A stretch of 64,000 nt of DNA from an uncultured delta proteobacterium (GCA_963792965.1 CAWBYW010000009.1:1-64000); one strand, 5' to 3'. Counted from the stretch's first letter, positions 12,294 to 50,100 are shown. Numbers and translations are program-made. The notes: a model not told the origin generated them from the sequence alone.

Positions 12294-13223
12294 ATGACCG
12301 CGGCCCGCAACACGTCTCGTGGCATCAATCGGGCGGCCGCCGGCCCGCCGCTTTCGATCCCCCCCGGTTTCGCGAAACGGGCGGTCCCGGGCGGGACCCT
12401 CATCGTCAACGCCCGGCATGAGGCCCCCCTCATCTCCTCGGGCATCCTGACGCGGGACATCACCGCTCTCAGGTCGTCCGACGCCCGGTCGCTCTCGGGT
12501 GGGAGGGGATCGGCATTTATCGTGGTCGTCCCAGGGATAGGAGACGTGGTGATTCGCCGCTACTTGCGGGGGGGGCTGATCGGGAAGCTGTGCCTTGACT
12601 CCTATCTGTTCCCCACCAGGCCCACTCGAGAGCTCGCGGTCCTGGCCTACGCCCGGTCTCGCGATGTTCCTGTCCCCGAGGTCTTGGGGGCCTCCGTCAT
12701 GTCCGCCGGGCTCCTCGGATACCGCGGCCGGATCGCAACCCGAATGATCCCGGATTCAAGGACTCTTCCTGTCTTCATCGTGGAGAAAGGGGAAGACGGC
12801 CGACGCATTACGGGCGTCTTGAGAAAGTCAGGTGCAGCGATCAGGCGGATGCACGAGGCCGGAATTGCACACGCCGACCTCAACATGAACAACATCCTCA
12901 TAGCCTCAGACGGCGCGCCATTCATTATTGACTTTGACAAGGCGACCGTGCATCGCGAACTCGGTACACGAAACCGGCTACGAAACCTCAGACGGCTCTT
13001 GCGCTCGGCCCGGAAACTGGCGGGACTGGGCCTTGGCTTCTCGGACGCTGATTACGAGACGATCCTCGAGGGCTACTGCGGGGGGGATAGGCAATCCCTT
13101 GAGAGGCTGAAAAGATCGACGGTCGGCTCGCGCCTGGCCTGCACTGCGCGGGCGCTTCTCCAGGTTCCTCCATCGATTTTAAGAGTTAAGGTGACACCAT
13201 ACTTAATTACAACTTTCTATTGA
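12294..13223 (+). CDS. Kdo kinase/LPS kinase (KdkA/WaaP family)
   Basis: VIRRYLRGGL, HADLNMNNIL, IIDFDK and NLRRLLRS motifs. Confidence 0.8.
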   Translation: MTAARNTSRGINRAAAGPPLSIPPGFAKRAVPGGTLIVNARHEAPLISSGILTRDITALRSSDARSLSGGRGSAFIVVVPGIGDVVIRRYLRGGLIGKLCLDSYLFPTRPTRELAVLAYARSRDVPVPEVLGASVMSAGLLGYRGRIATRMIPDSRTLPVFIVEKGEDGRRITGVLRKSGAAIRRMHEAGIAHADLNMNNILIASDGAPFIIDFDKATVHRELGTRNRLRNLRRLLRSARKLAGLGLGFSDADYETILEGYCGGDRQSLERLKRSTVGSRLACTARALLQVPPSILRVKVTPYLITTFY

Positions 13224-13262
13224 ATTAGCGGAAAGATTCGCTAATTAAGTATGGTGTCACCT
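13189..13262. repeat. REPIN/MITE-like palindromic element, copy 1
   Basis: Perfect 21-bp inverted repeat AGGTGACACCATACTTAATTA / TAATTAAGTATGGTGTCACCT; shares 25 bp with 43925-43949. Confidence 0.85.
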
Positions 13263-13270
13263 GTTGGGCC

Positions 13271-37668: not shown

Positions 37669-38898
37669 CTATTCGTATCTGAGGGCCTCCACCGGATCCA
37701 TCCGGGAAGCCTGCCACGAAGGATAAATCGTTGCCAAAAGACAGAGCATGAGAGAACAGATGACGATGATCACGATGTCGGAGGTGACCATCTTCACCGG
37801 GAGCGTCGAGATGTAGTAGACGTCCGGGTTCAGCTTGATGAAGTGATAGCGGCCGAGGATCTGGCACATGCCCCAGCCGAAGGCTGACCCGAGCGCCGTC
37901 CCAAACGCCCCGATGATCGTCCCCTCGAAGATGAAGATTCTCATGATGCTCCGCTTCGTGGCCCCCATCGCCTTGAGGATGGCGATGTCCCTGCTCTTCT
38001 CCATGACCAGCATGATGAGTGCCGAGGCGATGTTGAACGCCGCCACGAAGACGATCATCACCAGGATAATGAACATCGCAACTTTTTCCAGCGCAAGCGC
38101 CGCGAAGAGGTTCTTGTTCATGTCCATCCAGTCCATCGTATAGAACGGCATGGAGAGCTCGCCCTGGATGGTCTTGCCCACCTCCTTGGCCTTGTAGATG
38201 TCTTTGAGCCTCACCTCGACGCCGGTGACGGTATCACCCATGTCCAGGAAGGCCTGGGCGCTCGGGATGGAGATGTAGGCAAACGCGGAGTCATAGTCGT
38301 ACATCCCCGCCTCGAAGATGCCGACCACCACGAATCGCTTCATCTTCGGCGTCATGCCCAGCGGCGTTATCTCGCCGCCCGTGGGCGAGAGCATCACGAG
38401 GTAATCGCCGTAGGTTACCCGGAGGAGCTTTGCCAGCTCCCTGCCGAGGATGATCCCCGGCACCCCGTCTTTGCCGGTGGAGAGCTCATCGAGGCTCCCG
38501 ATCTTGAGATTCTTCTTGAGGTCTATGACGCCGCCAGCCGTTTTCGGATCGATCCCCCTGAGCACCGCCCCCGATATCCCGCCGTCCTCGGACGACAGCA
38601 TGATCTGGGTCTGGATATAGGGGGTCGCCGCCACGACGTCCGTGACCTTCGTGATGGTGTCGATCACGGAGCTATAGTCCTGGATGTTCCCCTCGTTATT
38701 CAGCACGACCAGGTGAGAGTAGGCGCCGAGGATCTTGGTCTGGAGGTCCTCCTTGAAGCCCGCCATCACCGAGATGACGATGATGAGCGCCGCCACCCCG
38801 AGGGCGACCCCGCCGATGGAGATGAAGGTGATGAGCGAGATGAAGGACTGTTTCCTCTTCGCCTTCAGGTAGCGCCTGCTGATGAGGAGCTCGTACAT
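37669..38898 (-). CDS. lolE: Lipoprotein-releasing ABC permease LolC/E, copy 1
   Basis: RYLKAKRKQSFISLIT, WMDMNKNLF, IAILKAMGA and DPVEALRYE. Confidence 0.9.
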   Translation of the reverse strand: MYELLISRRYLKAKRKQSFISLITFISIGGVALGVAALIIVISVMAGFKEDLQTKILGAYSHLVVLNNEGNIQDYSSVIDTITKVTDVVAATPYIQTQIMLSSEDGGISGAVLRGIDPKTAGGVIDLKKNLKIGSLDELSTGKDGVPGIILGRELAKLLRVTYGDYLVMLSPTGGEITPLGMTPKMKRFVVVGIFEAGMYDYDSAFAYISIPSAQAFLDMGDTVTGVEVRLKDIYKAKEVGKTIQGELSMPFYTMDWMDMNKNLFAALALEKVAMFIILVMIVFVAAFNIASALIMLVMEKSRDIAILKAMGATKRSIMRIFIFEGTIIGAFGTALGSAFGWGMCQILGRYHFIKLNPDVYYISTLPVKMVTSDIVIIVICSLMLCLLATIYPSWQASRMDPVEALRYE

Positions 38899-38906
38899 GG
38901 CCTCGC

Positions 38907-40415
38907 CTATTCCTTTTCGCGCATCTGGGGGAAGAGGATCACGTCCCGTATCGAGGCCGAGTCCGTGAAGATCATCACCATCCTGTCTATGCCGATGCCC
39001 TCGCCCGCCGCGGGGGGCAACCCGTACTCGAGGGCGCGGATGTAGTCTTTGTCATACTCCCGGATCCCTTCCCCGAAGTCGACCGACTCGATCTGGTGCA
39101 GGAACCGCCGCTCCTGGTCGTCCGGGTCGTTGAGCTCCGAAAATCCGTTGGCGACCTCCATCGCCGCGATGTAGAGCTCGAAGCGGTCGGTGAACCCGGG
39201 CTTCTCGTCCGAGGGCCGCGAGAGGGGCGAGACCTCGACGGGGTAGCTCGTGACGAAAACGGGGCCCGTGAGCTTATCCTCCGCGGTCTTCTCGAAAAGC
39301 TCGAGCAGCAGCTTTCCCCATCCCCACGCCGGCTCCGCCTCGGCGCCGAGTTTTTTGAGCCGGTCGCGCATGAGCGACTCGTCCGTGATCGTCTTTTCGT
39401 CGATACCGCCGTATTTCACGACGGCCTCGGCCATCTCGATCCTCTCCCAGGGCGGGGTCAGGTCGAGCTCCGTGCCCTGGTAGGTGATCGATGTTTTACC
39501 GGTGACCTTTGCGGCGACGGAGGCAAACAGCTCCTCGGTGAGATCCATCAGGTCGTGGTAGGTGTGGTAGGTCTCGTAGAATTCGAGCATCGTGAACTCG
39601 GGGTTGTGGTGCGTGGAGATGCCCTCGTTCCTGAAGTTCTTGTTGATCTCAAATACCCGGTCCATCCCGCCCACGAGGAGCCGCTTGAGGTAGAGCTCCG
39701 GCGCGATGCGCAGGAACAGCTCCATGTCCAGCGTGTTGTGATGCGTGACGAAGGGCCGCGCCGCCGCCCCGCCGACGATCTGGTGGAGCATCGGCGTATC
39801 GACCTCGACGAACTCGTGTCCGATGAAAAAGGCGCGGACCTCGGATATCAGGCGGCTCCGCGTCAGGAAGACCTCTTTGACGCGGGGGTTCACCAAGAGG
39901 TCCACGTACCGCCTGCGGTAGCGCGTCTCCACGTCGACGAGGCCGTGCCATTTTTCCGGCAGCGGACGGAGTCCCTTGGTGAGGAGGCGCGACGAGGTGA
40001 CGTTGATGGTCAGCTCGCCCGTCTTGGTCCGAAAGGGGGTGCCAACGATGCCGATGATGTCGCCGATGTCGTAGTGCCGGGTTTCATCGTAATCCCGGCC
40101 CAGCGCCGCGGCCTGGAAGAAGATCTGGATCTGCCCCGTGCCGTCAAGTAAGTGGGCAAATGCCGACTTGCCGAAGTCCCGCTTGGAGACGAGCCGCCCG
40201 GCGACGGCAAGGGCATCGGTGTTGCCCTCGAGGCCCTCGCGCGTGGCGTCCTTGTATTTTTCGGCGATCTCACGGGAGGTGTGGGTGGGGCGGAAGTCGT
40301 TGGGGTAGGGGTTCTTGCCCGCCGCCGCAATCGCGTCGCGCTTTTCCCTCCGGATTCGAATCAATTCCTGTTCGGGCGCCTGGGTCCCTTCCCGCTCCGC
40401 CACCGTTTCCTCCAT
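38907..40415 (-). CDS. lysS: Lysyl-tRNA synthetase, class II
   Basis: [39 protein letters not shown] and GIGIDRM. Confidence 0.98.
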
Positions 40416-40430
40416 TCGTATAAATGAGTT

Positions 40431-40459
40431 ACTTTACCCTATCGATGGCTGTTAGTCAA
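40431..40459 (-). promoter_or_regulatory. Sigma70-like promoter of lysS
   Basis: TTGACT-17 bp-TAAAGT just upstream of the lysS ATG. Confidence 0.55.
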
Positions 40460-40547
40460 GGGGAAAGGGAGCGCCGAGGAGTGCCGACCGGGCCTGCTAA
40501 GGGTCCCCCTGACGGACAAAGGCAGGGGAGTTTATTGTGCGGACACC

Positions 40548-40575
40548 TTGACATTTACAGTCATTGTGATATCGT
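40548..40575 (+). promoter_or_regulatory. Candidate promoter of khpA
   Basis: TTGACA-16 bp-TATCGT with TG extension. Confidence 0.4.
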
Positions 40576-40745
40576 ATAGAGGCTTACCTTACAATGTACC
40601 ATAATGATAATCCAGATTGAATTGGGCTACCGAGCGAGACCGGAGAGATAAGGCATACTTCTACCCTGTGCACGTAGGTCTTAAACTACACGAGAGGGGC
40701 GGAAATGACGAAAGGGGTAATTCAGGTGAAGATGGGGGTTGAAAA

Positions 40746-40976
40746 ATGAAGGAATTGATTAAGCTGATGGCTCAGGCTCTGGTTGACAATCCTGATAAGG
40801 TTGAGGTGAACGAAGTCGTAGGAGAACAGACGTCGGTCATCGAGCTCAGAGTTGCGAAGGAAGACCTGGGAAAGGTAATAGGCAAACAGGGGCGAACGGC
40901 GTACGCGATGAGGACGATCCTTTCGGCCGCATCGATGAAATTCAACAAGCGCGCGGTGTTGGAAATTCTCGAGTAG
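40746..40976 (+). CDS. khpA: KH-domain RNA-binding protein, KhpA family; copy outside the rpsP-rimM operon
   Basis: MKELI...ALVDNPD...[20 protein letters not shown]...R; GKQG is the GxxG loop. Confidence 0.93.
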
Positions 40977-41021
40977 TATGTCCGGGGAGGGGCGGCCTTT
41001 CATATTAATAGAGGTGTCCAA

Positions 41022-41273
41022 ATGGACGAGAAAGCAAAGAAACTGCTGGGACTTTGGTTAGAAACTAGTAATCCTGATCAGCCCTATGCTCACTCCGATG
41101 ACCTTGAAAGATTCTGTATTTTCGTAAAATACGCCTCACAATTCAAACCCCATGATGTTTTACAGGAAGCTGTAAAAGCATTAGAAGAAAAATATGGGGA
41201 TCGTCGAAGAGAGCTCTTCCATGAAGCCGAGAAATACATATATTTCTATGACACCATAAAGAAGATTGGGTAG
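41022..41273 (+). CDS. Hypothetical 83-aa protein, copy 1
   Basis: SD GAGGTG; 82/83 aa identical to 42119-42370 with mainly synonymous changes. Confidence 0.85.
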   Translation: MDEKAKKLLGLWLETSNPDQPYAHSDDLERFCIFVKYASQFKPHDVLQEAVKALEEKYGDRRRELFHEAEKYIYFYDTIKKIG

Positions 41274-41314
41274 TTGGAACGATATTGTGGACCTGAGGCG
41301 CCCAAATAACAGAT

Positions 41315-41398
41315 ATGCGTTGCGCGATATACGCCTGATATGGCACCGAGCTTAAAGACGACAAGTCTATCGAGGACCAAATCCGGGAGTGTCGGGAT
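41315..41398 (+). pseudogene. Serine recombinase N-terminal stub 1
   Basis: Translates MRCAIYA*YGTELKDDKSIEDQIRECRD; matches the serine recombinase N-terminal pattern AIYARYSS-x-x-Q-x-x-x-SIEDQ. Confidence 0.85.
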
Positions 41399-41449
41399 TC
41401 AAGAACACTCCGGGGAGGGCGGTCTTTTTTATTTACACAATCCTAAGAA

Positions 41450-41728
41450 ATGGTGATTAGTATGAAGCCCGGGGAATTTAAGCTGGAAATAGACCAATCT
41501 GAAAAGGATAAATTGTATAGATATGAAGATGGAGAATATATCTATTCTATATTTCCTTCAGACGCACGTGTATATTACGGTCAAAGAGGTACTCACCCAG
41601 CGATATCATTTAAGGGAGGACTTGACACTCAAAAAATAAGTGATCTTCAGTTTGAAGTAATACAGGGGACAAAATATAGACTGACGATTTCTCCTGATGA
41701 GAAGGAGGTAAAGGTCGAAAGTCTTTAG
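41450..41728 (+). CDS. Hypothetical AT-rich cargo protein
   Basis: 92-aa ORF with AT-rich codon usage; no motif recognised. Confidence 0.6.
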   Translation: MVISMKPGEFKLEIDQSEKDKLYRYEDGEYIYSIFPSDARVYYGQRGTHPAISFKGGLDTQKISDLQFEVIQGTKYRLTISPDEKEVKVESL

Positions 41729-41858
41729 AGCCATCTCCATCTATGACTGGCTTAAGTCCTTATGACTTTTCTTAACAAAGGCGCTGTCTTAGAATGGGGC
41801 AATCTGTCTAGAAATCTATCGTGAAAGTAGGTGATGAAACGAACAAAGCAGATTCACC

Positions 41859-41919
41859 CTACTCCCCCCCGCATCCGTCCTTATGCCCGAAGTCCTCGGT
41901 CTGGTCCGTCCAGCCGATC
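41859..41919 (-). repeat. Displaced 3' end of the SH3-like gene, short copy
   Basis: Encodes IGWTDQTEDFGHKDGCGGE*, versus IGWTDETGNFGHMDGCGE* at the end of 48034-48822. Confidence 0.9.
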
Positions 41920-41929
41920 CTCCCCGCGG

Positions 41930-42074
41930 CGTCCTCATCGAGCTCAGGGTTGCGAAGGAAAATATCGGAGTGGTAATAGGTAAACAGGGACGAACGGCGT
42001 ATGCGATGAGGACGATCCTTCCGGCCGCATCGATGAAATTCAACAAACGCGCGGTGCTGGAGATTATCGAGTAG
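41930..42074 (+). pseudogene. khpA: 5'-truncated khpA copy
   Basis: [45 protein letters not shown]; lacks about the first 30 codons. Confidence 0.88.
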
Positions 42075-42118
42075 GATGTCCGGAGAGGACGGCCTTTCAT
42101 ATTGATAGAGGTGTCCGA

Positions 42119-42370
42119 ATGGACGAGAAAGCAAAGAAACTGCTGGGACTTTGGTTGGAAACCAGTAATCCTGATCAGCCCTATGCTCACACTGATGACC
42201 TTGAAAGATTCTGTATTTTCGTAAAATACGCCTCACAATTCAAACCCCATGATGTTTTACAGGAAGCTGTAAAAGCATTAGAAGAAAAATATGGGGACCG
42301 ACGAAGAGAGCTCTTCCATGAAGCCGAGAAATACATATACTTCTATGACACCATAAAGAAGATTGGGTAG
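42119..42370 (+). CDS. Hypothetical 83-aa protein, copy 2
   Basis: 7 nt differences from copy 1 over 252 nt (manual count). Confidence 0.85.
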   Translation: MDEKAKKLLGLWLETSNPDQPYAHTDDLERFCIFVKYASQFKPHDVLQEAVKALEEKYGDRRRELFHEAEKYIYFYDTIKKIG

Positions 42371-42407
42371 TTAGGACAATACGACCTAAGGCGCTTAGAT
42401 AGCAGAT

Positions 42408-42495
42408 ATGGGTTGCGCGATGTGCGCAATTATCTGGTCCCAAGCTCCAGGATGATAAGTCCGTGGAGGACCAGATTCGCGAGTGCCTGGACTAA
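42408..42495 (+). pseudogene. Serine recombinase N-terminal stub 2
   Basis: MGCAMCA, frameshift, then KLQDDKSVEDQIRECLD*. Confidence 0.8.
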
Positions 42496-42544
42496 TGAGT
42501 ACCACGGGGAGGGCAGTTCTCAACTCATGGGGGGGTTCTAAGTA

Positions 42545-43131
42545 TTGATATTATTTCTGGATACCACGGCTATTTTCTCAGTAAAAAAGATGGAACCCAA
42601 TGGTAGTTTAGTTTGTGAACTTGTAGATCTCTGTAAGGAGAATGAAATCAAAGTATTCTGTAGTTATGCATCGAGTAACGAAAGGCAACCGTGTAGCACG
42701 AAATATAAAGACTATATGGCTGAGACTTCCAAATTATTTAGGGAATTGCTTATTAGTTTGAAATTGGATTATATAGAACCTAAAGAAGTACCATTATTTA
42801 TCCTTGGTGAATCCCGTTTGGGCGAGGCTTGTCTTAGTAGCAAAAAAATAGTTGAATTCGCAAATTCTGCTGCCAAGATAATGTTTGGTATTGACTATGA
42901 AAGTCTTAACTCGCAGTCAATAAATGGATGGAAAAATAGACGAGATGTCGAAATTTTTCTTACTTTTGTCTGTAGCGGTGACGGTATCTTGGTGACTTCT
43001 GACGGGCATTTCCTAAGAAAGAGGGATTTCTTGATAGTGGCGGCAAGAGAAAAATAAGATCAAAGATCGATATTTTAGACCCCGAAAGTGCCCTAAACGT
43101 ATTGAAAGAAATGGTAAGATTGGGAACCTAA
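42545..43131 (+). CDS. PIN-domain-like protein, apparent frameshift in an A-run near 43050
   Basis: FLDTT at the N-terminus, RRDVEIF and ILVTSDGHFL; continues in another frame as ...IDILDPESALNVLKEMVRLGT*. Confidence 0.7.
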
Positions 43132-43179
43132 ATGCGATGTGCAATATACGCAAGATATAGTTCCGAACTTTAAGACGAC
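43132..43179 (+). pseudogene. Serine recombinase N-terminal stub 3
   Basis: MRCAIYARYSSEL*DD with the catalytic YARYS motif intact; starts immediately after the PIN stop. Confidence 0.85.
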
Positions 43180-43204
43180 ACGGGCATTTATTCAGGAGGG
43201 TAAG

Positions 43205-43884
43205 ATGAAAAAGGTTATATGCCTCGTCGTTCTCCTGTTAATGGGATGCGCGACATCTTGGGTAGGTAAGAATATGAACGAATTGATAGCAGCGAAGGGT
43301 GAGCCAACACGGACAATAGATGATGGGCGGGGGGGCAGATATTGACTTACATCTCCCATGAAACGCATATGGCAGGAGGATGGTCTACAGGGTCAGGCGG
43401 CTACTGGATAAATGGCAGATACATACCAAAAACCATGACATACAGAAGACCAACTACTACCAAGGTAACAATAGAAAGGCTATTCTACGTAGACAGTTCC
43501 GGTACTATCTATAAGACGGATTCTAATAGAGATACTTCGACCTACGACACCAACGAAGTAAAACCAACATTGCCTCCAATCAGGGGGAAAACAACCGAAG
43601 ATCAGTTAATGGAATACACTGACAGTATTAACAAAAACCCGAAAGACCCGATACTCTACGCAAAGAGAGGCGACTTCTACTATTCACTCTGGCGAGATGA
43701 CGAAGCACTTGCAGACTACAACAAGGCAATAAGCCTTGAGCCGACTAAGAATGGCTTTATCTACTCTAGCCGTGGCAAACTCTACTTGCGGCTTGGAAAA
43801 AGAGAGGAAGCAAAGAGAGATTTTAAGAAGGCTTGTGAGCTTGGGGAGGGCGATGGTTGTTATCAATATAATATTATGTACTAA
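43205..43884 (+). CDS. Lipoprotein with C-terminal TPR repeats, frameshift in a G-run near 43330
   Basis: SD GGAGG; MKKVICLVVLLLMGC lipobox; YAKRG...EALADYNKAISLEP and EAKRDFKKACELG. Confidence 0.8.
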
Positions 43885-43920
43885 TACTATAGATAGAACC
43901 AGGACCAGACCAGAAGGACG

Positions 43921-43999
43921 GGAATTAAGGTGACACCATACTTAATTACTACTTCTCGGCTTAAACTAGAAGCCTATAGAATGTTGTCACTTTAATTCC
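43921..43999. repeat. REPIN/MITE-like palindromic element, copy 2
   Basis: GGAATTAAGGTGACACCAT ... ATGTTGTCACTTTAATTCC (19 bp, 2 mismatches), between convergent genes. Confidence 0.8.
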
Positions 44000-44028
44000 G
44001 ACTCAATTCAAAAACATTCACTATGGAT

Positions 44029-44628
44029 TTAGGATAGAGACTTTTGAAATGCGCGACCCATCTCAAAATCAATATACCTGCTAAGCTCGATTGAACTTCC
44101 ATCTTTGAAATACACTCTGCAAGTGCAGAGGAATGGTCCGTAAGCCGATGTCCTAACACCGATTATGCCGTCTTTCTCGTCTTCCTCAAAAACCCTGTTT
44201 CCCCACATATGGCCAAAAAAGAATGACGCTCTTGCTACATCTGAAAAATCTGTTGTCTTATGTCGGATAAGATAAATAAAGACGTCATATTTCTGTCCCG
44301 GAACTTTCGATGGTGAAATGACATGGGTTAAGAAGATCCCTTTATTTTTCTGATAGACAAGCGTTCTTTTTGGTGCCCAATCCTCTTCTACTTTCTTGGA
44401 TCCAATCTTATCCTCACCGGGGGGGGCATAATCCAGTTGCCTTAAGTCTGCGCCTATTTCGACGGGACCGGCTTTGAAAGAACTGCCTTTACGTATTCTG
44501 AGAATTATAGTATCGAAGAGGTGAGTGAGTCGCCTGTAAAACACGCATAAGAAGATAGCAATAAGTAGAATCCAGGCAATGGTCTGTAATAAAGGTACAT
44601 ATGGAGCTATCGTGATAAGGTTACACAT
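44029..44628 (-). CDS. Membrane-anchored prokaryotic YEATS (pYEATS)-like protein
   Basis: N-terminal TM helix; YDVFIYLIRH...FFFGHMWGNRVF...TSAYGPFLC...FKDG...LSRYIDFEMG pattern recognised from memory. Confidence 0.7.
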   Translation of the reverse strand: MCNLITIAPYVPLLQTIAWILLIAIFLCVFYRRLTHLFDTIILRIRKGSSFKAGPVEIGADLRQLDYAPPGEDKIGSKKVEEDWAPKRTLVYQKNKGIFLTHVISPSKVPGQKYDVFIYLIRHKTTDFSDVARASFFFGHMWGNRVFEEDEKDGIIGVRTSAYGPFLCTCRVYFKDGSSIELSRYIDFEMGRAFQKSLS

Positions 44629-44694
44629 TCCACAAATCTTTACAGTAACAGCCTGATTATCACGGGTAAGGGCCCAATCCTACTTTTGTGTTTC

Positions 44695-44804
44695 CTATTC
44701 CCCCCCGCACCCATCCTTATGCCCAAAGTTGTCGGTCTGGTCCGTCCAGCCGATCTGTCCCTTACTGTTGCGGATCTTCACCCACCAGGTCCACACGGGC
44801 TCGA
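44695..44804 (-). repeat. Displaced 3' end of the SH3-like gene, long copy
   Basis: EPVWTWWVKIRNSKGQIGWTDQTDNFGHKDGCGGE*; 44765-44804 is identical to 48101-48140. Confidence 0.92.
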
Positions 44805-44806
44805 AG

Positions 44807-47554
44807 CTACCGGTCAGTCCCGTCCAGGACCTTCCGGATCTTTTCCGAGAATTCCCTGAGCGTGGCCGGTTTCTGGATGAATCCTTCGACGCCGCTCATA
44901 TCTATTTCGCCCGCCTTGCCGTTTAGAGTATACCCCGAGGTGATCAGGACTTTCACGCCGGGGTCCGCCTCCCTGAGCCCCGCCAGGGTGTCCTTGCCCC
45001 CCATCTTCGGCATGATGACGTCGAGGATAACGAGATCTATTTCACCGCTTTTCTCCCTGAACATCGAGAGGCCCTGCTGCCCGTTTTCCGCCAGGAGCAC
45101 GCTGTACCCCATCCGCAACAGGTACTCGGCCCACACATTCCTTACCACCGGTTCGTCGTCAATGATGAGGATGGTCTCTTGTCCTCCCTCGTGGTCTTTC
45201 TTGTTCAAGACCCTGTCTTTTTTGACCGTGCCCCTGGTGACCGGGAAGTAGAGGTTGAACGTCGTTCCCTCTCCGGGCTCGCTGTAGACGGTGATAAACC
45301 CTCCATGCTTTTTTACCGTTCCGTACACCGTCGCAAGCCCCATCCCCGTCCCGCCCTGATCCAGCTTCGTGGTGAAGAACGGTTCGAAGAGGTGGTCTTT
45401 CACCTCCTGCGTCATGCCGGTCCCCGTATCGGTCACGGAAAGGACCAGGTGCTCACCTTCCTGGCTGCCGATGTGCGTCCGTACGAAATCGCCGTCCAGG
45501 TATTTATGAGAGGTTTCTATGACCAGGGTTCCTCCCGTGAGCATCGCGTCCCGCGCGTTGATGCAGAGGTTCAGGACGCATTGCTCCACGTAGGAGGCGT
45601 CCACCTCGAAGGACGGCAGGGAATCCGAAAGAATGGTCTTGATCTCGATGGATTTGTCAAACGCCCCCGTTACGAGGGGAAGGATGTGTTCCACGATCTC
45701 GTTAACGCTGCCGGTTACCAGACGGTACTCGCCGGCCCGGGTCACGTTCAGCAGCTCCCGCGTCAGCTGGGACGCCTTGAGCGTCCCCTCGAAAATGGTC
45801 TTCAGGGCCTTGTATTCGGGATCTCCCTCACCCCTCTTACCGAGCAGGTACTCCGAGTACCCCATGATGCCAACGAGGACGTTGTTGAAGTTATGGGCGA
45901 TACCGCCAGCCATGGCCCCGATCGCCTCCATCTTCTGGGCCTGGAGGAACTGCCCCTCAAGCTTTTTCCGTTCCGTGACTTCCCGGGCGAATACCATCAG
46001 GCCCTCTTTCCCCTCCCACGTGATGGCTACCCCGATGGCCTCGTACCACCCGGTTTCACCGGTCTTCTTAATATACCGGTATTCCGAAGGATAGGTCAGC
46101 GAATCCCCCCCGAGTTTCCTGCGGAATTCCCTCTCGGCCGGTTCATTGTCTTCCGGGAAAGTGAGCTCTCCCAGGGATTTCCCTTTCAGCTCCTCGGGGG
46201 AATAGCCGGTCATCCGTTCGGTCATCGGGTTGGCATACACGACCAGCCCGTCGACAAAGATCATGATGGCCTCCTGCGCGTTTTCGACGACCTGACGGTA
46301 TTTCTCCTCCGATTCTCTCAACGCCTCTTCTGCCCGCCTGCGGTCCGTGATGTCCCTCAAAGTCCCCTGAAATCCGACCACACGATTTTCTTTCCTAATC
46401 AGACTGACCGACCCTTCAACGCTTATCTCCTGCCCTTGCCTATTGAGCATTTGGTACATGATATACTCAATCGGCCTACCACTTTCGTATAGACCCTTAT
46501 ATTCCTCTACGATCCGTTTTCTTACTTCGGGTTTTAACCTATCGAACGTGCTTTTTCCTATCGACTCGTTTCCTGGATAACCCGAGAGCAATTCTGCTGC
46601 TTTGTTCATCGAGGTTACCCTTCCTTTGAGGTCTATAGTAAAAATGGCCTCTATTGAATTCTCAAAAAGATTACGAAAGCGTTCTTCCGATTCCCGCAGC
46701 GCCTCCTGGGCCCTTTTCCGCTCGGTGACGTCCCTGAGGACCCCCTGGAACCCGGTAAAAACGCCGTCCCTGTAGAGAAGGTTTGCGGATCCTTCGACGG
46801 TTCTCTTCGTTCCGTCCTTCCTGACGAGGGTGAATTCGAAGTCTCTGACAGGCTCTCCCGACCGGTACATTTGGCTATAGGAGGCGTAGAATCTCCGGGC
46901 GTCCTCCTCGTTCACCCCTTTGCGGAAGCTCTCCCCGATAGTCTCTTTCCTCGGGTAGCCCGTGAGCTCCACGAAGACATCATTAACCTCGGTGAAGTGA
47001 CCTCTCTGATCGAGCGTGAAAAGCGCCTCGACGGAGTCGTTGAAGAGGTTTCTGTACTGTTCGGCCGTGCTTTTCAGCTCCCTGTTTGCCCCCGCAAGCT
47101 CCTTCGTCCGCTCCTCCACCTCCCGCTTGAGGGTCTCCTGTGCTCTCCGCAGAGACTCTTCCAGGTGCTTGTGGTACGCCGCGTATCTTATGGAACGGGC
47201 GAGGACGCCCCCATCGAAATGGCCCTTCAGCAGGTAGTCCTGCGCCCCCTTTTCGAGCGATTCCGTGGCTGTAGCCTCGTCATCCATTCCGGATGCGACT
47301 ACTATCGCCAGCGTACTGTCTGCCGATACGATTTCCTCCAGCGTCGCGATTCCCTGGCTGTCGGGGAGATTCAGGTCCAACAAGACCAGGTCGTATTCCC
47401 CCGCCTCGAGGAGTTCCCTGCCACGGGAAAGCGTGGCGGCGGTATCCAGGGTGTAGGGGACCGCTTTCTGCGCTGAAAGCATGTCCGCGACCACCTGTTG
47501 ATCCAGGGGGTTGTCTTCTATCTGCAGGATCCTGAATGCTTTTCTTCTTGACAT
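44807..47554 (-). CDS. Hybrid sensor histidine kinase (REC-3xPAS-HisKA-HATPase-REC)
   Basis: LLDLNLPD; three PAS repeats; QAQKMEAIGAMAGGIAHNFNN; NLCINARDAM; DTGTGM; PFFTTK; ILDVIMP. Confidence 0.95.
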   Translation of the reverse strand: MSRRKAFRILQIEDNPLDQQVVADMLSAQKAVPYTLDTAATLSRGRELLEAGEYDLVLLDLNLPDSQGIATLEEIVSADSTLAIVVASGMDDEATATESLEKGAQDYLLKGHFDGGVLARSIRYAAYHKHLEESLRRAQETLKREVEERTKELAGANRELKSTAEQYRNLFNDSVEALFTLDQRGHFTEVNDVFVELTGYPRKETIGESFRKGVNEEDARRFYASYSQMYRSGEPVRDFEFTLVRKDGTKRTVEGSANLLYRDGVFTGFQGVLRDVTERKRAQEALRESEERFRNLFENSIEAIFTIDLKGRVTSMNKAAELLSGYPGNESIGKSTFDRLKPEVRKRIVEEYKGLYESGRPIEYIMYQMLNRQGQEISVEGSVSLIRKENRVVGFQGTLRDITDRRRAEEALRESEEKYRQVVENAQEAIMIFVDGLVVYANPMTERMTGYSPEELKGKSLGELTFPEDNEPAEREFRRKLGGDSLTYPSEYRYIKKTGETGWYEAIGVAITWEGKEGLMVFAREVTERKKLEGQFLQAQKMEAIGAMAGGIAHNFNNVLVGIMGYSEYLLGKRGEGDPEYKALKTIFEGTLKASQLTRELLNVTRAGEYRLVTGSVNEIVEHILPLVTGAFDKSIEIKTILSDSLPSFEVDASYVEQCVLNLCINARDAMLTGGTLVIETSHKYLDGDFVRTHIGSQEGEHLVLSVTDTGTGMTQEVKDHLFEPFFTTKLDQGGTGMGLATVYGTVKKHGGFITVYSEPGEGTTFNLYFPVTRGTVKKDRVLNKKDHEGGQETILIIDDEPVVRNVWAEYLLRMGYSVLLAENGQQGLSMFREKSGEIDLVILDVIMPKMGGKDTLAGLREADPGVKVLITSGYTLNGKAGEIDMSGVEGFIQKPATLREFSEKIRKVLDGTDR

Positions 47555-48033
47555 TGAAGCGTCCTGTCCAAATCAAAGGTAAAAGGCACTCGCGTATTCT
47601 CCGGGGAAAAGCATCGAGCGCGGAGTCAGCATTGATTTAGCTGCATGCGCATAGTTATGTACCTTCATCCTGAACCCGCTCACGCATCTCGGGAAATCGT
47701 GTTTCTCAGAAAGATCGAAGGCCGACGTGCCTTCTTTGATGTGCGACTCGAGGGTAGGGAGAGGAACGACGGCCAAGGCGGATTTATTATACGCTCAAAT
47801 ATTCAAAATGCAACTAAAATGATTTACAGGCTGAGTCTCGATTGTTTATAAGTTTGGCAATCGTTTAGGCGGTACTCAACCATGTGTTTCGGGGGCGTGC
47901 TTTTCGGTCAGGTCGTGCACCCGAGCGCCCTCTTCCCGATCCCTTTCGAGAAAGGGTGTGGGAATCAGGGCCAGCGAGCCCATGTGGCAAACGAAAAACG
48001 TCGAATTTCTAAATCTGAATCCCCTTACTCCCC

Positions 48034-48822
48034 TTACTCCCCGCACCCGTCCATGTGCCCGAAGTTGCCGGTCTCGTCCGTCCAGCCGATCTGGCCCTTG
48101 CTGTTGCGGATCTTCACCCACCAGGTCCACACGGGCTCGACCGTCATGACGATCGGCTCATAGCCCTCCACGCTGTCCAACAGCTGCCCCTTGAACCAGG
48201 CCCTGTACGTCCCCTCCCCCTGGTAGGTCAAGTACTCCACGATGTCCCCCACCGCTGCCGGCCGGTTGCCGAGCGGCATGGGCGACCTTATCTCGCCCCG
48301 TCCCGGTACCGTCGTGATCACCACGCCGGTCGTCCCAGTCACCCATTCCCCGGCCTTCGCCGTAAAGACGACCGGCGAGGTGGCCAGCCGATCCGCGCGT
48401 ATCGGCGTATCTTTTGTGACGCTCCAGTCGCGGTAGGTGCAGCACTCAAAGGGGCACGCGCCCCAATCCTCGTAAGGGAGCTTCGGCCCGGCGGGGTCGA
48501 TGGCCGGCTCGAACCTCCGCGCATCGCCGGCGTCGATCGTCAAAAAGTGCCCGAAGACAAACCCCGACCGGTCCCCGAAGGTGATGTAGTACCAGTAGGC
48601 CGGAATCGCCCCCGATCGTCTCGAATACCCCCGTCCGGTTGACGACCGTAACCCTGGTCCCCTTGTCCAGCGAGATGACGACGACGGCGTCCGTGCGCGC
48701 CTCCTCGCGCAGGCGCACGCCGTCCCCGGCGATCGTCGCGTTGTCGGCGCCGAACGCCCCGACCGGCCGACAGGCGCCGCGAGGAGGAGACAGACCGAGA
48801 TCAAAAAGAGGATTTTTTTCAT
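48034..48822 (-). CDS. Secreted SH3-like domain protein, frameshifted in its 5' half
   Basis: Signal peptide; (V)RLREEARTDAVVVISLDKGTRVTV, WYYITFGDRSGFVFG, ACPFECCTY and WWVKIRNSKGQIGW. Confidence 0.7.
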   Translation of the reverse strand: MKKILFLISVCLLLAAPVGRSGRSAPTTRRSPGTACACARRRARTPSSSSRWTRGPGLRSSTGRGYSRRSGAIPAYWYYITFGDRSGFVFGHFLTIDAGDARRFEPAIDPAGPKLPYEDWGACPFECCTYRDWSVTKDTPIRADRLATSPVVFTAKAGEWVTGTTGVVITTVPGRGEIRSPMPLGNRPAAVGDIVEYLTYQGEGTYRAWFKGQLLDSVEGYEPIVMTVEPVWTWWVKIRNSKGQIGWTDETGNFGHMDGCGE

Positions 48823-48867
48823 GTCATAATTTCCTTTATCGGGGTCTCACGGCCGGGGGTCTCTCCC

Positions 48868-50100
48868 CTACTCGTAGCGGATCGCCTCCACCGGGTCCAT
48901 CCGCGAGGCGTGCCAGGCGGGGTAGAGGGTGCAGACGAGGCATATGAAGAGCGACGCGATCGAGATGATCAGGACGTCCGATGCCGCGACTTTCACCGGC
49001 AGCGTCGTGAAGTAATAGATTTTCGGGTCGAGGTCGATGAACCGGTACCGCGCAAGCAACAGGCACATGGCCCAGCCGGACAGGAGCCCCAGCGCCGTCC
49101 CGATGACCCCGATGGTCATCCCCTCCCACACGAATATCCGCATGATCGCGCCCTTCGTGGCCCCCATGGTGCGCAGGATCGCGATGTCCTTTTTCTTTTC
49201 CATGACCAGCATGATGAGCGTCGCCGCGATGTTGAACGCCGCCACGCAGACGATCATCGTCAGGATGATGAAGAGCGTCACCTTCTGCAGCGAGAGCGTC
49301 GCAAAGAGGTTCCTGTTCATCTCCATCCAGTCGATCGCGTAAAACGGAAACGAGAGCTTTGCGGAAATGAGCCTTCCGATCGACCGCGCCTGGTAGACGT
49401 CGGCAAGCCTCACCTCGACGCCGGTGATGGTGTCGCCGAACTCCAGGAAATCCTGCGCGGCGGGAAGCGAGATGTAGGCAAACGTGGAGTTATACTCGAA
49501 CATCCCCGCGTCGAAGAGCCCCACTACGCGGAACTGCCGCATCTTCGGGGTCATCCCCAGCGGCGTCATCTGTCCCCCCACGGGGGAAAGCAGTATCACC
49601 GAATCGCCCTTCGCCACCCCGAGCGCCTTGGCAAGCTCCGTGCCGAGGATGATCCCGGGCTGCCCGCCCTCTTTCGTAGTCAGATCGTTCAGGTTCCCGG
49701 AGACGAGATCTCTCTTCAGCGAAATGACGGACGGCGCGGTGGCAACGTCTATCCCCCTGAGCACCGAGCCCTCAATCTTCCCGTTGCTTGACGAAAGCAT
49801 CACCTGTGTCTGGATGAAGGGGGTCGAGGCGACGATCCCGGGGATGTCCTTGATCTGGTCCATCACCGAGCGATAATCGTTAAAGACCGACGCCTCCTTG
49901 AGGACGACGAGGTGGGCGTAGGCCCCCAGGATCTTGCCGGTGAGCTGCTCGGTGAACCCGGTCATGACCGAGTTGACGACGATGAGCGCCGCCACCCCCA
50001 GCGCCACGGAGCCGATCGAGATGATGGTGATGATGGAGATGAAGGCCTGTTTCCGCTTCGACTTCAGGTAGCGCCGGCTGATGAAAAACTCGTATCGCAT
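48868..50100 (-). CDS. lolE: Lipoprotein-releasing ABC permease LolC/E, copy 2
   Basis: RYLKSKRKQAFISII, WMEMNRNLF and DPVEAIRYE; colinear paralog of 37669-38898. Confidence 0.88.
   Translation of the reverse strand: MRYEFFISRRYLKSKRKQAFISIITIISIGSVALGVAALIVVNSVMTGFTEQLTGKILGAYAHLVVLKEASVFNDYRSVMDQIKDIPGIVASTPFIQTQVMLSSSNGKIEGSVLRGIDVATAPSVISLKRDLVSGNLNDLTTKEGGQPGIILGTELAKALGVAKGDSVILLSPVGGQMTPLGMTPKMRQFRVVGLFDAGMFEYNSTFAYISLPAAQDFLEFGDTITGVEVRLADVYQARSIGRLISAKLSFPFYAIDWMEMNRNLFATLSLQKVTLFIILTMIVCVAAFNIAATLIMLVMEKKKDIAILRTMGATKGAIMRIFVWEGMTIGVIGTALGLLSGWAMCLLLARYRFIDLDPKIYYFTTLPVKVAASDVLIISIASLFICLVCTLYPAWHASRMDPVEAIRYE

Follow-up and report, generated by a model that had tools for sequence, protein, structure and literature searches.

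Truncated copies of two flanking genes, separated by unrelated cargo, lie within the interval between these genes: khpA2, which is a second paralogue of khpA, and a gene for a secreted protein with an SH3 domain. We analysed this interval in a stretch of 64,000 nucleotides (nt) from an uncultured delta proteobacterium (GCA_963792965.1 CAWBYW010000009.1:1-64000), called the window here, which covers the opening 64 kb of a contig 337 kb long; the contig belongs to a metagenome bin of 3.36 Mb and 42 contigs (88.9% complete, 4% contamination). Along the plus strand, khpA2 is followed by an open reading frame (ORF) of 83 amino acids (aa), a recombinase stub, a 92-aa ORF, a first remnant of the SH3 gene 3' end and about 15 unmatched bases. 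A truncated khpA2, a second copy of the 83-aa ORF, stub 2, a PIN-like ORF, stub 3 and a lipoprotein-TPR gene come next, and the right end holds a palindrome, a pYEATS gene, a second SH3 remnant, a hybrid histidine kinase gene, the SH3 gene itself and lolE2 (Table 1). With SH3' for a displaced 3' end and 'khpA2 for a copy lacking its start, the topology is full khpA2 - cargo 1 - SH3' / 'khpA2 - cargo 2 - SH3' / kinase - full SH3. We hold, with slightly better than even confidence, that the khpA2-SH3 interval is a strain-variable hotspot for horizontally acquired DNA that has been filled additively, each event using one homologous and one illegitimate joint.

Table 1. Features of the khpA2-SH3 interval and its flanks, in window coordinates
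Feature	Position	Strand	Basis or remark
lolE1	37669-38898		flanks whole region, left
lysS	ends at 40415	-	left of khpA2
khpA2, second khpA paralogue, left conserved flank of slot	40746-40976	+	PF13083, 85.5 bits (Pfam)
83-aa ORF, copy 1	41022-41273	+	ORF call
Spacer with ~35 nt of 3' end of PIN-like gene	41274-41314	+	aligns with region upstream of stub 3
Stub 1, recombinase codons 1-29, in-frame TGA at codon 8	41315-41401	+	tblastn match 41315-41416, 70.6% over 34 aa, E 1.2e-11
92-aa ORF, cargo of unit 1, doubtful gene	41450-41728	+	ORF call
SH3 remnant 1, 62 nt: stop codon and ~54 nt coding	41858-41919	-	87% to gene, 90% to remnant 2
Putative illegitimate joint, SH3 remnant 1 / truncated khpA2	41920-41934		alignments; X2 unitig
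Truncated khpA2 copy, from ~nt 88 of gene	41935-42074	+	PF13083 profile positions 27-73 only
83-aa ORF, copy 2	42119-42370	+	99% aa identity to copy 1
Stub 2, degenerate codons 2-28	42418-42492	+	tblastn E 5.5e-4
PIN-like gene, ORF 170 aa (42545-43057), other-frame C-terminus to 43128	42545-43128	+	premature TAA at 43057
Stub 3, codons 1 to ~17	43132-43188	+	tblastn 73.7% over 19 aa, E 1e-3
Lipoprotein-TPR gene, split by frameshift at G7 run 43329-43335	43205-43884	+	signal peptide, lipobox-like LMGC; TPR families (Pfam)
Palindromic repeat element, right arm degenerate	43922-43998		fold -29.1 kcal/mol, z -3.47
pYEATS-domain protein, hydrophobic N-terminus	44029-44628	-	PF20305, 50.1 bits
SH3 remnant 2, ~105 nt	44694-44804	-	92% identical to gene end over 102 nt
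Hybrid histidine kinase, 915 aa, REC-PAS x3-HisKA-HATPase-REC	44807-47554	-	Pfam
SH3-domain secreted protein gene, right conserved flank	48034-48822	-	orthologues 60-61% identity in G002, G005, G007
lolE2	48868-50100		beyond SH3 gene, right

Flank-gene ends repeated inside the interval

The 3' part of khpA2, the 83-aa ORF and stub 1 form a block of 0.59 kb (40838-41425) that is repeated at 41935-42519 with an offset of 1097-1098 nt, and the cargo after each stub differs. Along this block the khpA part is identical at 124 of 139 positions (89%; 15 base changes, 5 amino-acid changes), the following spacer at 39 of 45, the 83-aa ORF segment at 245 of 252 (97.2%), the spacer after it at 28 of 41, the stub segment at 63 of 88 (72%) and the tail beyond the stub at 16 of 24. 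The two ORF copies differ by a single amino acid, five of their seven base changes being silent, and contain an exact repeat of 104 nt. Neither the block nor the SH3-end repeats occur at any second locus in the whole bin. The truncated khpA2 is 88.8% identical to its own khpA2, 81-83% to the khpA2 genes of the related genus g3 and 74.4% to the canonical khpA, so that the donor would have been a fairly close relative or a member of the same lineage. That canonical khpA lies on another contig (G000:C7:309449-309688), in the order ffh-rpsP-khpA-rimM-trmD-rplS, and has 88% aa identity to khpA2.

The 3' end of the SH3 gene is present in three copies, the two remnants and the gene end itself (48034-48140), and each remnant is bounded on its outer side by the stop codon. 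At their inner boundaries the copies contain blocks of complete identity, of 24 nt between remnants 1 and 2 and of 40 nt between remnant 2 and the gene; the stop-proximal parts differ by about 13-16%. The joint at 41919-41934 links unrelated sequence, with antisense sequence from a coding 3' end on its left and mid-khpA sequence on its right. A 151-nt unitig of the public run X2 spans it (41876-42026) with 0 differences, and further exact pieces from public runs cover 41740-41890, 42036-42269, 42972-43121, 43149-43299 and 48032-48242. This support comes from two runs of a single study. Of the sampled words these runs contain 6-9%, and they are possibly not independent of the bin's sample; over 40000-49000, the contigs of the two runs leave most bases uncovered, including 44515-45116.

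A preliminary description of this DNA had already drawn attention to the repeated block and the SH3-end copies with different AT-rich cargo, and repeat search, alignments and GC windows all bear it out: the cargo supplies the sole 1-kb windows below 45% GC in the 337-kb contig. Its labels khpA, truncated khpA, TPR and pYEATS likewise agree with Pfam. Its statement that the shared parts differ mostly at synonymous sites holds for the 83-aa ORF and fails for the khpA piece, where the 15 base changes alter 5 residues, and for the stub, which is a pseudogene.

Several smaller observations concern the repeats and their flanks. A 63-aa ORF at 41883-42074 starts from an ATG on the strand antisense to SH3 remnant 1 and is composed of 14 novel residues and the C-terminal half of the KH domain; this fusion ORF is probably non-functional. 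A G-rich motif after khpA and after the stubs was considered as a special signal and rejected, the 11-mer being found 13 times in the genome. The SH3 gene is open over 262 codons with its SH3_3 domain (48446-48822) in another frame, two compensating shifts of 1 nt lying near 48600 and 48750, which reflect either real compensated frameshifting and decay or an assembly or sequencing error; in the G005 orthologue SH3_3 is found at 42.1 bits. Across the SH3 stop codon (48021-48038) the 9-nt unit CCCCTTACT stands in tandem.

Recombinase stubs and the remaining cargo

The stubs were compared with a 548-aa large serine recombinase of a relative, G003, which has Resolvase, Recombinase and Zn-ribbon domains. 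When its first 60 residues were used as a tblastn query against the whole bin, exactly three sites matched, all of them stubs, with every other match at E >= 0.6; later parts of the gene were found nowhere in the bin. The earlier label "recombinase stub" was therefore correct, each stub being the opening 17-29 codons of a gene for a large serine recombinase. Stubs 1 and 2 share both the truncation at codon 29 and about 22 nt beyond it, which indicates descent from one truncation; stub 3 ends near codon 17 and is a separate remnant. The stub in the duplicated block is a decaying pseudogene. No serine recombinase in the bin exceeds the Pfam cut-off (best PF00239 score 14.7 bits). Among the ten species genomes of the family, three encode one and none of these has the slot, as we call the space between khpA2 and the SH3 gene; the four genus-g3 genomes have none.

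Upstream of stub 3 lies the PIN-like gene, the 170-aa ORF of which has one homologue, P0002 (197 aa, 74% identity). The extra C-terminal residues of P0002 match the other frame at 43060-43128, which shows the stop of the ORF to be premature. The original stop, as we read the sequence, overlaps the ATG of stub 3, and 42545-43188 is on that reading the remnant of an operon in which a PIN-like gene preceded the recombinase gene. About 35 nt of the end of the PIN-like gene also precede stubs 1 and 2. The ORF has no match in Pfam, NCBIfam, PADLOC or PHROG. A language-model search gave a lead to PIN clusters (0.90, rank 10), the AlphaFold model was poor (pLDDT 45.1), and the N-terminal 'FLDT' and C-terminal 'VTSD' are motifs that we take, by eye, to be PIN-like, the gene being a PIN gene only presumptively. 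Relatives of the ORF were absent from GTDB genome contigs (0 of 121 stretches), plasmids, phages and viral contigs (0 of 31 stretches). A scan for relatives of the G003 recombinase returned one distant locus, of 31% identity and without an upstream PIN-like gene, and no intact relative of the recombinase element with known att sites was present in those scans. Full-length recombinase genes at L042:1194-2840 (G003) and L043:1997-3760 end in ...GFEPVTFG..., a typical translated tRNA 3' end, from which those elements probably lie inside tRNA genes, unlike this slot.

The two short ORFs of the repeated units have few or no relatives. The 83-aa ORF is a near-orphan: a word-indexed search found only itself, an exhaustive search added two weak relatives assigned to no family, and of 41 genomes searched only that of the window contains it (0 of the 40 others). 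It has no match in Pfam, NCBIfam or PHROG, an insignificant one in PADLOC (E 0.022) and no usable one in a language-model search. The 92-aa ORF has no family match in Pfam, NCBIfam, PADLOC or PHROG and no homologue candidate.

In the rest of the cargo, a signal-peptide ORF and a TPR ORF are one gene whose frame switches at the G7 run. The cargo genes that appear broken include this one, by its split, and the PIN-like gene, by its premature stop. The strands are mixed, with the pYEATS and kinase genes on the minus strand and the remaining cargo on the plus strand. The kinase stop codon lies 2 nt from SH3 remnant 2; paralogues of 43-53% identity are encoded elsewhere in the bin, and the kinase was not found in the slot of the four genus-g3 relatives. 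A scan for promoters and terminators stayed at background (11 against 8.4 expected, and 9 against 7.9). The palindrome noted earlier is real, yet it is a member of a dispersed family of intergenic repeats, about 80 nt long with 24-nt arms, which occupies six loci in the bin (43922-43998, 13183-13265, C11:5343-5419, C16:120293-120374, C16:120815-120892 and C4:~91722-91802) and may be REP-like or MITE-like.

The slot in related genomes

The slot was compared in five genomes of two genera, that of the window and four of genus g3 (G002, G005, G007 and G009). The gene order lolE2-SH3-[slot]-khpA2-lysS-lolE1 is kept in all four relatives, where khpA2 orthologues adjoin lysS; the paralogue is shared with genus g3 alone, and clear orthologues of the SH3 protein occur only in these four members of the family of ten. 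In four loci fetched from three other genera, lysS has neither khpA nor SH3 as a neighbour (G008, with lysS at a contig end, was left out). The two lolE paralogues that bracket the region here stand side by side beside lysS in G003 (L038), and this points to a possible insertion of the lysS-khpA2-slot-SH3 segment between them, or to a rearrangement of the region; either may have happened in the ancestor of genera g1 and g3.

The cargo of the slot differs in all four relatives that share the synteny, so that the comparison proposed in the preliminary description found content that is not invariant. In G005 and G007 about 430 nt are followed by an SH3 3'-end remnant of ~88-94 nt (85% to the own gene) and then by a gene for an ICMT-like membrane protein; G002 has the same layout, with a degraded SH3 remnant and the ICMT-like gene. 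The slot of G009 holds genes for an SNase, an epimerase and an enoyl-CoA hydratase, a copy of the palindrome directly upstream of a khpA fragment that begins at ~nt 124, a 337-aa ORF without an assigned family, a TPR lipoprotein and an FMN reductase, and no SH3 remnant. Breakpoints are never reused: those in SH3' lie ~62, ~105 and ~98 nt from the stop, and those in khpA at ~nt 88 here and ~124 in G009. In the lysS-khpA spacer of G002 (L025) there is, relative to G005, an insertion of ~360 nt with a 24-nt palindrome, and part of it resembles the sequence just upstream of the G009 khpA fragment.

Proposed additive insertion and the alternatives

From these repeats and breakpoints we infer a mechanism, an order of events and a source of cargo. 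The slot would owe its content to at least three additive events, each pairing homology in one conserved flank with an illegitimate joint, between non-homologous sequences, at the opposite side. Three routes could yield this: a linear fragment may have entered by homology-facilitated illegitimate recombination, a fragment from a related strain may have been circularised and inserted in the Campbell manner, or exchange may have been unequal. The older allele would have been displaced and nothing replaced, a truncated copy of a flank gene being left at each joint: joint A would connect SH3' (62 nt) to 'khpA2 at 41919-41934, and joint B SH3' (~105 nt) to the end of the histidine kinase gene at 44804/44805. 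One illegitimate joint combined with recombination in the homologous flank reproduces the observed topology exactly, and the stop codon would form the outer edge of each remnant because the homology between any two alleles of such a variable slot ends at that point. Part of the cargo DNA would derive from integrative elements encoding a large serine recombinase, of which the three stumps are left, and the kinase block and the scars of the relatives would be products of the same process. The present state would be a fossil of past insertions and decay and not a working cassette system, since the locus has no recombinase of its own and several of its cargo genes are broken. The earlier proposal that two alleles of a hypervariable slot were stacked additively gains support from the diverged copies in series and from the other cargo in four of four relatives.

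A number of points weigh against additive insertion of this kind. The blocks of 24 and 40 nt suggest a crossover within a short repeat, whether homologous or site-specific, and keep a site-specific or circle-integration variant alive, plain illegitimate joining predicting no such blocks. Divergence along the repeated block is uneven, at 2.8% in the 83-aa ORF, 11% in khpA and ~30% in the stub, which makes a single event insufficient and calls for strong selection acting on the ORF or for gene conversion afterwards. The scars cluster, at least four events in the five genomes all having their visible scar either within 110 nt of the SH3 3' end or in khpA2. This could reflect a preferred site, and it is partly detection bias, as joints inside unrecognisable cargo cannot be seen. 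Read support covers one joint only (41919-41934), through a single unitig of depth 2, and there is no long read across the two units. A donor strain with unit 1 alone or unit 2 alone was not retrieved from a metagenome scan and the two public runs; of the 55 candidate stretches that the scan, by SH3 alignment, returned, two were relatives, and their contigs (1.0 and 1.4 kb) do not show the slot.

One alternative is a site-specific accretion, in which successive elements used the SH3 3' end as attachment site, pushed the older copy outward and later lost their integrases. We consider this unlikely. Direct repeats of a gene 3' end do bound each block with the stop codon as outer edge, the perfect inner-edge blocks resemble crossover cores, recombinase stumps are present, and the older remnant is the more diverged from the gene (87% against 92% identity). 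The repeat lengths, however, vary from event to event (~62, 105 and 98 nt) with inner boundaries that are not constant, the scar of G009 lies in khpA without an SH3' copy, and the block between the remnants opens not with an element end but with a copy of the opposite chromosomal flank ('khpA2 - 83-aa ORF - stub), as expected of a piece of a related chromosome spanning the slot and not of a discrete element. The recombinase traces are solely of the serine type, and serine recombinases exchange at a 2-bp core and are not known to make long direct repeats. As the earlier account had stated for integrases and transposases, no intact recombinase is present; the interval and the contig lack an intact integrase, the only two full tyrosine recombinases of the bin being on other contigs. 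A tRNA-type attachment site is excluded here, with no Rfam family and no tRNA (ARAGORN) in the window. A dif/Xer (IMEX) origin was also rejected: the cumulative GC skew of the contig falls monotonically with no turn at 40-48 kb, no dif model having been searched, and the repeats, 62-110 nt in length, consist of coding sequence rich in GC and are not 28-bp dif sites.

An old tandem duplication within one genome, bounded by khpA2 nt 88 and SH3 nt -62, produced by unequal illegitimate exchange and followed by replacement of one cargo, would give the same topology from a single joint, and it would fit both the closeness of the truncated khpA to its own khpA2 and the stub truncation point common to both copies. 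It is distinctly unlikely, in that the wholly different cargo demands extra events, the third SH3' copy beside the kinase is left unexplained, and a divergence that ranges from 3% to ~30% does not fit one age. A fresh duplication is ruled out, as the preliminary description had held, by the divergence of 11-30% in the non-coding parts. Less probable again is an assembly artefact that joined up alleles from two co-occurring strains. In its favour, the assembly is a metagenome bin of many contigs, the 83-aa ORF holds its exact repeat, and several homopolymer-type frameshifts lie nearby; yet the joint connects non-homologous sequence, and graph assemblers err inside repeats and do not invent such joints. 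The SH3'/'khpA joint is moreover exact in a public-run unitig, would without stacking still imply a 1.1-kb circle or a tandem array, and has a counterpart of the same kind in the khpA scar of G009, an assembly of 10 contigs. Least probable is the active, integron-like capture locus that the preliminary description proposed, with cassettes at defined sites (the stub tail and the SH3' end) and a recombinase encoded elsewhere and acting in trans. Boundaries recur, the slot is variable in two genera and recombinase-related sequence stands at the boundaries, but the proposal fails on every integron feature examined and is also unnecessary. No integron integrase was found in the bin: the highest-scoring match to TIGR02249 lies on another contig and reaches 83.7 bits, where the cut-off is 265. 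PF00589 has no match on the contig of the window, and neither the bin nor the four genus-g3 genomes encode a serine recombinase. Of six inverted-repeat pairs in 38000-48000 none occurs at more than one boundary (no dedicated attC model was run), so that no common boundary motif emerges, and the sole strong palindrome is the dispersed repeat inside unit 2. The stubs are cut at different codons, 29 and ~17, the breakpoints of the repeated gene ends differ throughout, and the cargo lies on both strands and is partly broken.

Besides additive insertion as set out above, we entertain a quite improbable further possibility, that the conserved arms act as portable homology cassettes and permit integrase-free, recurrent capture and stacking in at least two genera. 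The arms would be the 3' half of khpA2 with the 83-aa ORF and the stub, and the last 60-110 nt of SH3; recombination between SH3' repeats might free circles of one cargo block and one arm, to be re-inserted through the 24-40-nt cores, with the 83-aa ORF a selected passenger or helper. Such arms would amount to cassette exchange without a dedicated recombinase. If instead the favoured explanation, additive filling of a hotspot, is true, the locus is a clear natural case of additive acquisition away from model organisms and toxin loci alike, in which scars record each insertion with its breakpoints and the decay of elements to stumps of 17-29 codons, and it would aid the interpretation of "integrase-less" islands in metagenome bins. 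It also cautions that repeated gene ends at island borders are not by themselves evidence for a site-specific system.

The locus adds one more case to a familiar class, that of insertion hotspots in which gene ends have been displaced and integrative elements have decayed. In tandem island accretion at the 3' end of a tRNA or protein gene, copies of the target 3' end separate successive blocks, and the interval resembles this in its repeated 3'-end copies between blocks; it differs in that the repeat lengths are not constant, there is no integrase and one block opens with a copy of the opposite flank. With chromosomal integron arrays it shares a serial, variable set of mostly small gene units at one locus, whereas here there is no intI and no attI or attC, the orientation is mixed and the boundaries are gene fragments with variable breakpoints. 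An integrative element of the large serine recombinase type would carry an intact gene with Resolvase, Recombinase and zinc-ribbon domains, and only stumps occur here.

Core-gene-flanked hotspots of horizontal gene transfer (PMC5635113) likewise hold different accessory genes in the same interval, with foreign composition and with mobile-element genes missing or degraded; the present comparison covers five genomes in two genera, and the visible serial stacking of two diverged alleles is unusual. The closest features are found in the Rhs, CDI and type VI secretion system (T6SS) orphan arrays. T6SS orphan immunity-gene arrays of Vibrio cholerae and strings of orphaned Rhs 3' regions are attributed to homology-facilitated illegitimate recombination (PMC5361080), and these arrays consist of a conserved anchor gene followed by displaced 3' fragments in direct orientation with different downstream genes, modules being added and not exchanged with no dedicated recombinase (PMC5361080). 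The interval analysed here likewise combines a conserved anchor with displaced, truncated copies that are directly oriented, breakpoints that are each unique, and a joint at which unrelated sequences meet. In contrast to those arrays, its displaced ends belong to ordinary flank genes (the SH3 lipoprotein-like gene and khpA2) and not to polymorphic toxins, its fragments are short (62-140 nt) and without a functional domain or immunity logic, and its scars lie on both flanks.

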